From Nitrospirota bacterium (GTDB taxonomy: Bacteria; Nitrospirota; UBA9217), in assembly GCA_029858565.1 (NCBI GenBank), contig JAOUEV010000053.1:1-23088 (forward strand): a DNA stretch of 23,088 nucleotides, read 5' to 3'. Each line of letters starts with the position of its first letter. Within the stretch, counting starts at the first letter, position 1. Positions 1-3,173 of this stretch are shown one piece after another. The translations under genes and the position numbers were made by a program. A model generated the notes under the pieces. The model was not told the DNA's origin and did not search any database. It was given only the letters and a program-made list of their open reading frames with translations.

Positions 1-8
1 TTCGCCAT
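1..8 (-). CDS. 5' end of a gene running off the window (ATG GCG AA...), either a second cassette or a flanking gene
   Basis: Minus strand reads GGAGGCGT-ATG-GCG-AA, a Shine-Dalgarno followed by ATG at 8..6. Only two full codons are visible. Confidence 0.5.
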
Positions 9-63
9 ACGCCTCCCGTGGGTGAGGGGTTTTGGTGCTTCAGAAGTGCGTTTCGATGGCGTC

Positions 64-72
64 AGTATAGCA
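64..72 (-). promoter_or_regulatory. extended -10 promoter (TGCTATACT) for the gene starting at 8
   Basis: Near-consensus TGnTATAAT on the minus strand. The same 9-mer precedes the kinase at 10551. No good -35 at 17 bp. Confidence 0.5.
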
Positions 73-92
73 TAAAATGACTTTTTCTACAC

Positions 93-149
93 CTTCAACG
101 CCGCCGTGAGGGGCGTGCTTTCACGACCCTCTCGACGGCGTGGTTAGAT
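93..149 (-). mobile_element. integron attC site (57 bp)
   Basis: Directly after the cassette stop codon: R'' ATCTAAC (149..143, fits RYYYAAC) and R' GTTGAAG (99..93). Imperfect inverted repeat CGCCGT/GAG/GGG/CGTG around a CTTT loop, with unpaired G134, T130 and A126 on the bottom strand. Confidence 0.85.
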
Positions 150-150
150 T

Positions 151-951
151 TCAATCTGCAGTTCTCAAAGGTTCAATTATCGCTTTTTGAATTCTGTTTG
201 CACCGTCGGCATCTATTCCCGCGGTATCCATTACCTTCATATTCCGGAAAAGCTCCTGCGATACATATTTTTTACTCGTCACTAGGTTTCTGTGAATTAC
301 TTTTACGAGATTGTTCTTGTAAAAGATTAACAGCAGCCTCGGCATCGGAGATAAATCCTCGATCCAGCTTTCTAATATGAAATATTCCTCGATTTGCCCA
401 TCCTTCAATCGGGGGTTCTTTTCAAATTTGTACTTATTGAGAAAACCTTGAAGTGTGCTCTTTTGAATTGGCCCATCTCGATCAAGAAATTTTATGAGCT
501 CATACTCAGGAATACTGTCAGGTTTAATATTTCCCGTATTTATAAAAACGTGCTCTATAACAACTCCTATCCGACTATTCTTTTCTCCTATGTCCCAACC
601 AACTTTAAATTGATCGATTGTCTTGCCTACGACAACACCGTTAATGTCATATAGAATAGAGTCCGCCTTCACTTGAGGGTTTTTAACAATATTAATAAAT
701 GCTGTCTTCTCGACATAAGCAACAAGGCCAAGAGGGTGCCATGTTCTTTCGGTTATGTACGGTGGCAACAGGTCGATCACTGCTCCATCGTTTAGGGTCA
801 AAAGTATTTTGCCCTCTGGCTTCTCTCTTAAATTAGCGGGTCCCTTTACAATCTCAGCAAATGCATATGAAGCCTGAAAAAGAGAAGTAAGTACAAGTAA
901 CAGAAAGATTATTTGAGATATACTACGCCTGTTTCTGTAAGTGCAAGTCAT
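151..951 (-). CDS. integron gene-cassette protein, probably secreted; possible SH3b-like N-terminal segment; function unknown
   Basis: AT-rich ORF between attI and attC. ATG at 951 has an AAGGA RBS, while the 978 start lies outside the crossover point. Signal-peptide-like RNRRSISQIIFLLLVLTSLFQASYAFA is followed by ANLREKPEGKILLTLNDG. Confidence 0.8.
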   Translation of the reverse strand: MTCTYRNRRSISQIIFLLLVLTSLFQASYAFAEIVKGPANLREKPEGKILLTLNDGAVIDLLPPYITERTWHPLGLVAYVEKTAFINIVKNPQVKADSILYDINGVVVGKTIDQFKVGWDIGEKNSRIGVVIEHVFINTGNIKPDSIPEYELIKFLDRDGPIQKSTLQGFLNKYKFEKNPRLKDGQIEEYFILESWIEDLSPMPRLLLIFYKNNLVKVIHRNLVTSKKYVSQELFRNMKVMDTAGIDADGANRIQKAIIEPLRTAD

Positions 952-969
952 CGTGCTATTCCTTTTGAA

Positions 970-988
970 GACTAACAAGATATTAATT
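970..988 (-). mobile_element. integron attI site (L AATTAAT - 5 bp - R GTTAGTC; crossover G976/T975)
   Basis: Same geometry as attI1 (7-bp L, 5-bp spacer, GTT core). It lies between the intI 5' end and the first cassette, and GTTAG is complementary to CTAAC in the cassette's R''. Confidence 0.7.
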
Positions 989-997
989 CTCCCGGAG

Positions 998-1026
998 ACA
1001 GTAGCATAAATTCATTCGATGGTCAA
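998..1026 (-). promoter_or_regulatory. Pc-like cassette promoter TTGACC-N17-TACTGT with TGn extension
   Basis: Minus strand TTGACC ATCGAATGAATTTATGC TACTGT, pointing into attI and the cassette. Confidence 0.65.
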
Positions 1027-1124
1027 ATAATATGCGCCAGCAAAACCACGTATCTCACTGAATAAACTGGTATCACGCAATTTGGATAACATTCACTTTC
1101 TGTAATATCCAGGAATAGAAAAAT

Positions 1125-1145
1125 AATATTCCAAAACGGAATATT
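1125..1145. promoter_or_regulatory. perfect inverted repeat AATATTCC-N5-GGAATATT upstream of intI (putative operator)
   Basis: 8-bp arms, ending 18 bp before the intI ATG and just ahead of the AAGGAGG RBS. Confidence 0.4.
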
Positions 1146-1163
1146 CAATTTAAGGAGGTCCTC

Positions 1164-2558
1164 ATGGAACCTATTCCTGGCTGCATTCTTGAGCGTTTTG
1201 ATTCACTTTTGAACAAGAAGTCTGTCCCATTCGAAGCTCGCGATGACTACCGGAAGTGGCTTCGTTACTATCTTGATTTTCGATCTAAGTACACCCTGCC
1301 CGACAATCGGTCGGAACAGGTGCGTTTGTTCATTGAGAAGATGCGTTCAAAAGGTCAGTCCGGGAAGAGTCTAAACCAGGCGGCTCACGCCCTTTCCTTG
1401 TTCTTCTCGCTCCAGGAAACCTGCAGAAGTGCGCCGACTCAGATGCGGATCGGCGATGAGGCATCGTCACATTCCCAGGTATTGACCGAGGACCGCGGCA
1501 AACCACTGAATTCAACGTCCGAGGCTGAGGCGCCGGCCCGACGTCGCGGAAGAAAATATAACGAGTGGTGGTCGATGGAGAAAACGGTTTCCGCGGAGTG
1601 GGATGTGATCATCACCGGCACGCTCGTCGGCGAAATACAAACGCGGCATTACTCCCGAAGAACCTTGAAGGCATACGCAGACTGGTCCCGCAAATTTCAG
1701 CTCTATCTCAAGCACAAGCCTCCGGCGGATCTTTCCGCCGAAGACGTTAAAGCCTACCTCACCTATCTCGCCGTCAACCGCAAGGTCTCTGCATCTACCC
1801 AAAATCAGGCGTTTAATTCTCTCTTGTTCCTGTTCCGACACATTCTCAAGAAGGACTTTGGCGACCAGAGGGACGTGCCTCGCGCTAAGAGGTCCAGCTA
1901 TATTCCCGTTGTCCTCACAAGGCAGGAGGTGGACGCGGTTTTGCAGCATCTCGCTCATCCGTACACTCTTATCGTAAAGCTCTTGTACGGCTGCGGACTG
2001 CGCTTGTTCGAGTGTCTCAAACTGCGGGTGCAGAACTTCAACTTCGACGCGGGTATACTGACGGTCATGGATGGAAAGGGAAAGAAGGCACGTACGGTTC
2101 CGATCCCTCGATCGATCGAACAAGAACTGCTGGAGCAGATCGCGCGGGTCAAGGCCATACATGAGGGGGACCTGCTGTCAGGCTATGCGGGTGTAGTGCT
2201 CGACGATGCGCTGGACAGAAAATATCGGAATGCGGCGAAAGATATCATCTGGCAGTGGTTATTCCCGCAGCAGAGCTTGACCTTCATTCTGGAGGCAAAT
2301 GAAAAGAGGCGTTTCCACCTGAACGACAGCGATGTACAGGAGCCGCTTCATCAGGCGGTACGAAAAGCCGGTATCACCAAACGCGTCACCTCCCACACCT
2401 TCCGTCATTCCTTCGCCACACACCTGCTCCAGGCGAACTACGACATCCGAACCATCCAGACGCTCCTGGGCCATAGCGACGTCAGGACCACGATGATCTA
2501 CACGCACTGCGTGCCGAGCAGGACACTCAAGGAGCTGAAGAGCCCGCTGGATTTCTAG
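1164..2558 (+). CDS. intI: integron integrase (tyrosine recombinase) with long N-terminal extension
   Basis: Catalytic motifs GLRLFE (R), DGKGKKAR (K), [15 protein letters not shown] and IYTH (Y). SAM-like [18 protein letters not shown]. IntI-specific insertion [35 protein letters not shown]. Confidence 0.95.
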
Positions 2559-2591
2559 GGAAAGATTTCGGTAGGGGAATACCTGGTATCG

Positions 2592-3173
2592 CTACGACCG
2601 GGATTGCGCTTTGCCTGCCAGGAAGGCCTTCTTGTTGATCTCGAGCAGTTTCTTGGGCACCGAATTCACGATCGCCTGGTCCACGATCTTCTCGTCGATC
2701 GGCAGGGACTTGAGCATGGCTCCGACGAGCACCAGGTTCACTGCCCGCTTCTCGCCCACACCCACGGCCAGTTCCGTGGCGTCGAAAGCATGAACCTTTG
2801 CCGCGTGCTTCCTGATCGTCTCATTGATGTCAGCGGGATATGCCTCTTTGCCGATGGACACGCCGATGGTGCCGATGGTCCGGGTGTTGTAGATCACCAT
2901 GCCGGTGTCCCGCAGAAAATGCAGGTACCGCGCGGTCTCGAGCGGCTCGAACCCGACCAGCAGGTCTGCCTCGCCCTCGGCGACAATGGGCGAGAACACC
3001 TTCTGCCCGATCCGCACCTGGGACAGCACGCTGCCCCCGCGCTGGGCCATGCCGTGCACCTCGCTCTGCTTCACGTCGAGCCCGGCCAGGAGCGCGGCCT
3101 CGGCAATGATCTTGCTGGTCAGCAGCACGCCCTGCCCGCCGACGCCTGCGATGAGAATGTTGAGTACGTTCAC
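2592..3173 (-). CDS. iorB: indolepyruvate:ferredoxin oxidoreductase beta subunit
   Basis: ILIAGVGGQGVLL and SEVHGMAQRGGSV motifs. GTG at 3173 with a GAGGT RBS is preferred over 3236. Lies downstream of iorA. Confidence 0.93.
   Translation of the reverse strand: MNVLNILIAGVGGQGVLLTSKIIAEAALLAGLDVKQSEVHGMAQRGGSVLSQVRIGQKVFSPIVAEGEADLLVGFEPLETARYLHFLRDTGMVIYNTRTIGTIGVSIGKEAYPADINETIRKHAAKVHAFDATELAVGVGEKRAVNLVLVGAMLKSLPIDEKIVDQAIVNSVPKKLLEINKKAFLAGKAQSRS

Follow-up and report, generated by a model that had tools for sequence, protein, structure and literature searches.

The window analysed here comprises the first 23,088 nt of contig JAOUEV010000053.1 from a Nitrospirota bacterium (GCA_029858565.1). 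An intI open reading frame (ORF) at 1164–2558 of the forward strand encodes a 464-aa integron integrase (IntI) and is divergent from one low-G+C cassette ORF, with one attC in the window. The protein is sequentially composed of an extra N-terminal domain (NTD) of the SAM-like, core-binding type, a disordered linker, a short tryptophan-rich motif, the canonical core-binding (CB) domain and the catalytic (CAT) domain (Table 1). Two alignments, one of 34 and one of 105 full-length homologues, show this anatomy clearly. The product of the gene is a complete, translated IntI that belongs to a distinct 'long' clade, characterised by an old copy of the CB domain, a disordered tether and a clade-specific Trp-rich motif.

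By every sequence criterion tested, the protein is a member of the integron integrase family. Pfam places Phage_integrase (PF00589) at aa 250–449 and Phage_int_SAM_4 (PF13495) at aa 157–233 of the full protein. The NCBIfam integron integrase model TIGR02249 scores 391.1 bits over aa 156–463 (cut-off 265), and the 270 bits on the class-1 equivalog model NF011946 fall short of its cut-off of 435. VchIntIA (PDB 2a3v) can be aligned to aa 158–456 only, with an E-value of 1.2e-74 and a single one-residue gap, and the IntI-specific insertion region at aa 335–385 is likewise matched with a single one-residue gap. IntI1, which occurs on at least 5000 plasmid records, aligns to aa 158–463 only and is 43.8% identical. 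Because both alignments begin at residue 158, about 157 residues of the window IntI are extra. R280, K305, H411, R414, H437 and Y446 are all present, align with what we take, by the numbering of VchIntIA, to be its six catalytic residues, and are invariant or at least 90% conserved among the 105 homologues. Recombination of attI with attC and of attC with attC is the predicted activity. The sequence-only reading that preceded this work had reported a protein longer than a classical IntI with intact catalytic residues and a strong ribosome-binding site ahead of the long form, and it was right on all three counts.

The NTD is recognisable at the level of profiles. When aa 1–149 are scanned alone, PF13495 matches aa 9–82 over profile positions 2–76 of 85, with an E-value of 7.2e-6 and 26.8 bits against a cut-off of 27; two Phage_int_SAM_4 stretches are counted in the full protein, as had been anticipated. 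Profile–profile alignment with hhalign pairs aa 8–81 with aa 150–224 of the protein's own CB domain over 74 columns with one gap (E 0.0034, 18% identity), essentially in the register drawn earlier by eye. In this alignment, the NTD keeps a helix-4 Q-A-A-x-A-L-S-L-F signature that lines up with the equivalent stretch of the CB domain. BLASTP could not align the NTD half with its CB counterpart at E ≤ 100. The duplication is thus not recent, and a recent origin was ruled out on this ground.

The full-length AlphaFold2 (AF2) model, built from a 105-row alignment, has a mean predicted local distance difference test score (pLDDT) of 81 and a predicted template modelling score (pTM) of 0.50, which leaves the arrangement of the domains undefined. 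The NTD reaches a pLDDT of 87–96 up to about residue 80 and folds confidently into four helices, in a pattern matched by the four helices of the canonical CB domain. Modelled alone, it has a pLDDT of 86 and a pTM of 0.75, with helices at residues 6–18, 23–42, 49–62 and 67–88. The NTD model was compared exhaustively with 48,161 solved chains using VIA-align. The best eight matches are all CB domains of tyrosine recombinases: VchIntIA residues 2–85 (Z 9.7, root mean square deviation 2.6 Å, 79 aligned residues), an archaeal Xer (4a8e; Z 9.7), XerD (Z 8.9), XerA (Z 8.7), a haloarchaeal integrase N-domain (Z 8.6), Brujita Int (Z 7.5) and the CB domain of lambda Int (Z 7.4 and 7.3), all with Z-scores in the range below about 13 that, by the tool's own warning, can be common for helical folds. 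The fold was assigned because the hidden Markov model (HMM) match, the profile alignment and the unbroken run of CB domains at the top of the structural list agree. Residues 1–88 are a second core-binding, SAM-like four-helix domain and an old, diverged copy of the CB domain, in keeping with the extra domain first claimed from the sequence. The domain is basic, with an isoelectric point (pI) of 9.5 in the window protein and a median of 9.6 (range 7.9–10.3) in 60 homologues. This basic character across the clade is an indirect indication that the NTD may bind nucleic acid.

The extension is translated protein under purifying selection and starts at Met1. Residues 1–85 are highly conserved in the 105 full-length homologues, with W32, D38, Y43, R54, K59, A73, S78 and F81 invariant. 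All 60 N-termini that were extracted from genome loci and aligned begin with Met1, and their mean column identity is 56%. In comparisons with eight relatives, the proportion of nonsynonymous differences (pN) in the NTD is 0.19–0.31, against a saturated proportion of synonymous differences (pS) of 0.72–0.94. The corresponding pN is 0.11–0.19 in the CB and catalytic parts, and 0.57–0.71 in the linker, near pS and thus close to neutral. The extension is accordingly conserved in homologues, as the sequence-only reading had expected. These data bear on the possibility that the gene model is an artefact, with a true start near aa 138 and the upstream 137 codons representing an untranslated open frame or a decaying fusion. 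Met138 is present here and would yield a 327-aa protein of classical length, and stop-free long frames without any domain do precede some short IntIs (loci L115 and L106). However, Met138 is replaced by Leu in most homologues, so that an internal start is not a conserved feature. An artefact is also contradicted by the low pN relative to pS in the NTD, the invariance of Met1, the strong Shine–Dalgarno sequence ahead of the ATG at 1164, the confident fold of the NTD, and the fact that 79 of 79 clade rows in the tree described below have an NTD, NTD remnants, a truncated 5' end or a contig-end cut. We consider it scarcely credible.

The segment between the two core-binding domains is of two kinds. 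Residues 89–131 have a pLDDT below 50 in the AF2 model and are predicted to be disordered; among homologues, the linker ranges from about 35 to about 100 aa, and its sequence is variable too, as seen from alignment gaps. The Trp-rich motif contains G129, E134 and W135, each at least 90% conserved, and W146 and D147, which are invariant in the 105 sequences. An HMM of the motif matches the nearer part of the long clade only. The linker had been described from the sequence as low-complexity with a basic patch. A disordered, variable linker is indeed found, but the basic patch is the start of the conserved Trp-rich motif and not low complexity.

Proteins of this design are widespread. Of 538 candidates from a search with residues 1–150, 175 match at E ≤ 0.001; most are 440–520 aa long, and the source databases name them 'integron integrase' without comment on the extension. 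When cluster representatives were searched exhaustively, 1309 proteins matched at E ≤ 0.001, of which 321 did so at E ≤ 1e-10, and short fragments are numerous among these. The short matches P0010, P0037, P0101, P0121 and P0123, considered as standalone NTD proteins, proved to be truncated or frameshifted long IntIs; no length-targeted search was made. In species-representative genomes scanned with two catalytic-domain peptide patterns, at least 588 loci encode a relative of the window IntI. The best 80 of these loci lie in metagenome-assembled genomes (MAGs) of Nitrospirota, Thermodesulfovibrionia and several Desulfobacterota families, and also in anammox Planctomycetota (Scalindua, Brocadia, Anammoxibacter), Nitrospinota, KSB1, a Marinifilum and Methylococcales; most of the 80 are matched over residues 1–464. 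By these sequence searches, the 'long' IntI design is common to hundreds of uncultured bacteria.

A maximum likelihood tree of the CB and CAT part (quick search, LG+G4, SH-aLRT support only) was calculated from the 110 IntIs that passed coverage filters among 128 loci; two of the genome's own Xer proteins served as outgroup. Every IntI with an NTD lies in a single clade of 79 rows, which has a support of 100 and whose stem measures 0.87 changes per site. The NTD is present in 67 rows, three rows are cut by contig ends, and nine lack an in-frame NTD. Six of these nine have NTD remnants in another frame or a split ORF, two begin less than 180 bases from a contig end, and one retains the last 17 NTD residues only. 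No intact short member was seen among the 79 rows. Open-frame length was dropped as a proxy for a long IntI, since L115 and L106 are long stop-free frames without a domain. Short NTD fragments, often with stop codons and covering profile positions 1 to about 40–65 only, were seen in many genomes of a sample of the window's phylum, with five to seven in some. Decayed 5' ends of long intI genes thus seem to be common and scattered.

Related domains are found outside the long clade. The phylum sample comprised 401 genomes. Matches to the NTD profile at E ≤ 1e-8 are present in 74 of them and matches to TIGR02249 at E ≤ 1e-40 in 108, and the two sets are not identical. The 30 best TIGR02249 scorers of this sample belong to other IntI clades. 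A Pfam scan of 29 of their ORFs found two Phage_int_SAM_4 stretches in 10. When sequences and profiles were compared, 14 of the 29 were found to have a SAM-like N-domain and six an unrelated β-rich domain; eight are short or without a recognisable domain, and one is cut. The SAM-like N-domains of these other groups are mutually related (E 1e-8 to 5e-15), and those of four groups are related to the window NTD with E-values of 1.4e-6, 5e-4, 3e-4 and 7e-5. In one of the groups, the N-domain is still closer to the CB domain itself (E 2e-11). Profile comparison therefore places related N-terminal SAM-like domains in at least four further IntI groups, which makes the duplication old. Most simply, these profiles can be read as the outcome of a single ancient duplication of the CB domain, the copies of which then diverged. 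A more distant tandem-domain IntI is the 454-aa 'integron integrase' of plasmid pTs485 in Candidatus Thiodictyon syntrophicum Cad16T, a strain named in culture that provides a native host with a relative of the distant type.

The β-rich domain occurs in a same-phylum IntI clade (loci L099 and L101–L105), where it is conserved and occupies about 100–190 codons before the CB domain. It is unrelated to the SAM-like copy and matches no Pfam family above threshold. HARP (PF07443) gives a sub-threshold match in three of four sequences (E 0.003–0.03), and the language-model neighbours of the domain are unnamed clusters.

Models of integron function rest on proteobacterial IntIs of about 320–340 aa, such as IntI1 and VchIntIA. 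The window IntI shares with these classical enzymes the CB domain, the catalytic domain with its R-K-H-R-H-Y residues and the IntI-specific insertion, and its gene is also divergent from a cassette with an attC-like site. The classical IntIs differ in beginning at the equivalent of residue 158 or later and have no NTD, linker or Trp-rich motif. A large tyrosine-recombinase classification, in the part drawn on here, files integron integrases among 'simple' enzymes of CB and CAT domains and describes N-terminal additions in other subgroups only, not in IntI (PMC8138268). The same part of that source states that the N-terminal domain of lambda Int, Tn916/Tn1549 Int and IntDOT binds accessory (arm) sites and controls directionality, and that these N-domains belong to Pfam clan CL0081 (PMC8138268). 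Like these arm-binding integrases, the window IntI has an accessory N-terminal domain tethered to its CB domain, but its NTD is an all-helical copy of the CB domain, and no arm-binding Pfam family matches the full protein or aa 1–149. As the folds differ, the window IntI is not a member of the arm-binding integrases, though it may work alike.

Two other groups offer partial parallels. Recombinases of the TnpR subgroup are described, within the same portion of the classification, as 'simple' enzymes that gained a helical N-terminal DUF3701, which is of unknown function and suspected to bind DNA (PMC8138268). A helical domain has been added to a simple recombinase in both cases, but the domain family and the recombinase subgroup are different, and DUF3701 has no Pfam match in the window IntI or in aa 1–149. 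MrpR (PDB 8a0a) and SroF (PDB 9rd5) have N-terminal core-binding-type domains that superpose on the NTD with Z-scores of 6.2 and 6.5, values within the range common for helical folds. By their PDB titles, both are tyrosine-recombinase-like repressors, and 9rd5 shows SroF bound to DNA, a precedent for operator binding by this fold. They are, in contrast, whole recombinase-fold proteins turned regulators, whereas the NTD is an extra domain on an active-looking integrase.

The DNA immediately upstream of intI contains a perfect palindrome (Table 1). In the 3.9-Mb genome, the exact pattern AATATTCC-N5-GGAATATT occurs here and in one other place only, the remnant of a broken intI on contig C40. It is absent upstream of the lexA and recA genes of this genome, which have different repeats, and may thus not be an SOS box. 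A set of 58 intI upstream regions was compiled from 57 related loci and the window's own. Inverted repeats of at least eight matched pairs are present in 26 of them, with a mean best match of 4.5 versus 1.3 in shuffles, and 19 of the 58 regions have a repeat whose end falls 4–22 nt ahead of the start codon. Arm sequences resemble one another inside an IntI subclade but not from one subclade to the next, and the half-site ACTAATAT recurs in many Nitrospirota loci. Two long intI genes in one MAG (L050 and L095) have different palindromes, and the two long intI genes of the present genome (C137 and C128) have different upstream sequences. In relatives, many palindromes sit, as judged by eye, downstream of a promoter resembling TTGACG-N17-TATTAT; a consensus scan of window 900–1700 found no sigma-70-like site. 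Many arms contain TAAT or TAAC cores that, in our reading, resemble integron core boxes. The palindromes fit a site read by the element's own protein, through the NTD or through another of its domains.

Two further repeats were observed near intI start codons. At L127, the locus on pTs485, the integrase start lies 8 nt beyond the end of a 50-nt palindrome of 22 matched pairs, which looks unlike the CTGT-N8-ACAG LexA box before IntI1. In the window, a perfect 10-nt inverted repeat (1109–1118/1171–1180) pairs the leader with intI codons 3–6, enclosing the Shine–Dalgarno sequence and start codon, and could form a translational hairpin.

We propose that the NTD acts as a second, independently positioned DNA-binding module. 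It would make the IntI heterobivalent, a property that lambda-type integrases owe to their arm-binding domain. The normal clamp of CB and catalytic domains would handle the attI and attC crossover sites, and the tethered NTD would bind accessory sites within the ~190-bp attI–promoter–leader region. Among the possible targets, the palindrome ending 4–22 nt upstream of the start codon is the most specific candidate. An NTD bound at the leader palindrome might repress or tune intI expression, or might help assemble the attI synapse. We assign a probability of roughly 55% to the NTD being a tethered accessory DNA-binding module. A broader proposal, in which long IntIs are both self-regulating and heterobivalent and the CB copy reads a degenerate IntI-box-like palindrome in its own leader and in attI, is tentative, and we regard it as rather unlikely. 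The sequence-only reading had envisaged a class of IntI with an extra DNA-binding module. The structural class is borne out, with the refinement that the duplication is old and is found in other IntI groups too, whereas the functional part is still something that we infer: the NTD has a suitable fold and is basic, so that it may bind DNA, and it could influence att recognition, directionality or autoregulation. Of the observations that the same reading had listed as counting against it, those open to examination here were all looked for and none was made.

Several observations weigh against the proposal. Foldseek searches with the NTD model gave weak matches, none at E ≤ 0.001 and the best at 0.15 (range 0.15–0.3); their top rows are Xer and IntI chains, the proteins that VIA-align ranks first. 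By the criterion of at least eight matched pairs, 32 of the 58 upstream regions have no palindrome, and the paralogue on C128 in the same genome shows none upstream. Host LexA boxes normally sit as palindromes beside intI starts. The IntI1 locus has CTGT-N8-ACAG at that place, and a host repressor may be the reader of the sites instead. The palindromes could also be leader RNA hairpins; with 3 mismatches in 17 repeats, wobble-type mismatches are too few to tell an RNA hairpin from a DNA operator. The covariation of sites with IntI subclades follows from shared ancestry and so does not identify the binding domain, and the normal CB/CAT clamp could itself be the palindrome binder.

The NTD might instead not bind DNA and serve as a protein–protein module, either as an autoinhibitory lid on the protein's own DNA clamp or as an oligomerisation handle that stabilises IntI dimers or tetramers. 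Its identity of only 18% to the working CB domain would be compatible with such a role, the conserved Trp-rich motif at 129–147 beside the CB domain could be a docking surface, and the full-length pTM of 0.50 leaves room for a docked arrangement. Nevertheless, the NTD stays basic across the clade and retains its helix-4 signature, and a long, unconstrained tether suits reaching a distant site better than fixed docking. Complex prediction between the NTD (aa 1–90) and the core (aa 140–464) scored 0.00 against a mark of 0.32, which provides no evidence either way. On balance we think a protein–protein role unlikely. It is distinctly less probable that the target of the NTD is single-stranded attC in its folded form, or a second arm of attC, in place of double-stranded accessory sites, and that the NTD thereby tunes cassette choice or the directionality of excision and integration. 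IntI substrates are folded hairpins, and the attC-like site of the window folds strongly. In addition, another Nitrospirota IntI group has, at the same position, the unrelated domain with a HARP match in three of four sequences, HARP being a fork- and junction-binding domain. That match is sub-threshold, however, no attC feature is linked to the NTD here, and attC recognition would leave the conserved palindromes beside intI unexplained.

Full-text searches of the literature outside subscription journals turned up no paper that describes an additional N-terminal domain in IntI. The long IntIs form a monophyletic clade with a third, tethered core-binding-like domain in the window's phylum and at least seven other named groups, and in other IntI clades this position is occupied by a related domain or by an unrelated one. 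If the NTD binds DNA, long IntIs would be mechanistically closer to lambda-type heterobivalent integrases, and it would become directly testable how attI is recognised, what sets directionality and whether environmental integrons control cassette shuffling independently of SOS. If self-regulation holds true, the integron would carry its own control of expression and synapsis, independent of host LexA, which could explain the spread of the clade over Nitrospirota, Desulfobacterota, anammox Planctomycetota, Nitrospinota, KSB1, Bacteroidota and Methylococcales. Accessory domains at the N-terminus would then be usual and not exceptional in environmental integrons, as the 14 SAM-like and six β-rich domains among 29 ORFs may indicate.

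Table 1. Features of the integron end of the window, in window coordinates
Feature	Position	Strand	Basis
attC-like site at 3' end of first cassette; imperfect hairpin with RYYYAAC-type and GTT-type end boxes (by eye)	86..152	-	folding
First cassette ORF, 275 aa from TTG 978 (ATG 951 is the likelier start)	151..978	-	ORF list
Probable attI crossover box, GTTAGTC (minus) / GACTAAC (plus)	970-976	-	alignment of window 940-1200 with C124 and C40
Conserved attI–promoter–leader region, ~190 bp	977..1163	+	two further genome copies (C124, C40)
Perfect palindrome AATATTCC-N5-GGAATATT, candidate operator or accessory site; ends 18 nt before start codon	1125..1145	.	inverted-repeat search
Shine–Dalgarno sequence of the long form, AAGGAGG, five bases before ATG 1164	1152-1158	+	read from sequence
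NTD, aa 1-88; extra core-binding-like (SAM-like) four-helix domain	1164..1427	+	Pfam, AF2, structure comparison, pN/pS
Linker, aa 89-128; disordered, with variable length and sequence	1428..1547	+	pLDDT, alignment gaps, pN/pS
Trp-rich conserved motif, aa 129-147, directly before canonical CB domain	1548..1604	+	alignment conservation
Canonical CB domain, aa 148-236	1605..1871	+	PF13495 at aa 157-233, E 3e-30; aligned to VchIntIA from residue 13
Catalytic domain with IntI-specific insertion, aa 237-464, and stop codon	1872..2558	+	PF00589 at aa 250-449; TIGR02249; 2a3v alignment to aa 456

The window is the start of its contig, which ends within the cassette array. The attC-like site, as single-stranded DNA, folds with −21.8 kcal/mol (z −6.7), a value reached by none of 200 shuffled sequences; it contains an inverted repeat at 98–117/122–141. 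Elsewhere in this genome, contigs C88 and C36 have copies that are 83–84% identical. The first cassette has a G+C content of 0.41, versus about 0.6 in the rest of the window, and its ORF matches no Pfam family at E ≤ 0.001. Rfam gave no match in window 1–3000 at E ≤ 1. The first 107 bases of the window, which are the start of the next cassette, recur at 94–97% identity at the ends of contigs C67, C82 and C69. It follows that the assembly broke inside the cassette array, and the repeated 5' region of the cassette is probably what broke it. Genes for 2-oxoacid:ferredoxin oxidoreductase lie to the right of intI, which identifies the element as a chromosomal integron.

The genome holds further copies of the intI locus. 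C128 encodes a second long IntI that is 57% identical to that of the window. Copies of the attI–promoter–leader region are found on C124 (85% identical) and C40 (78% identical), and the three-copy alignment has a mean column identity of 79%. The three paralogous copies are alike from the intI start codon to 970–976 and diverge beyond, which places the attI crossover, probably, at that position. On C40 (L006), the leader copy precedes a broken intI whose remnant is cut after about codon 45. At 1690–2020 of this locus, the broken gene runs into four tandem 16-nt repeats and 16–26-nt inverted repeats that resemble the end of an inserted element. On C124 (L002, 636–900), the leader copy is flanked on one side by a cassette-like ORF and has an unrelated gene in the place of intI, and thus represents an integrase-less attI.

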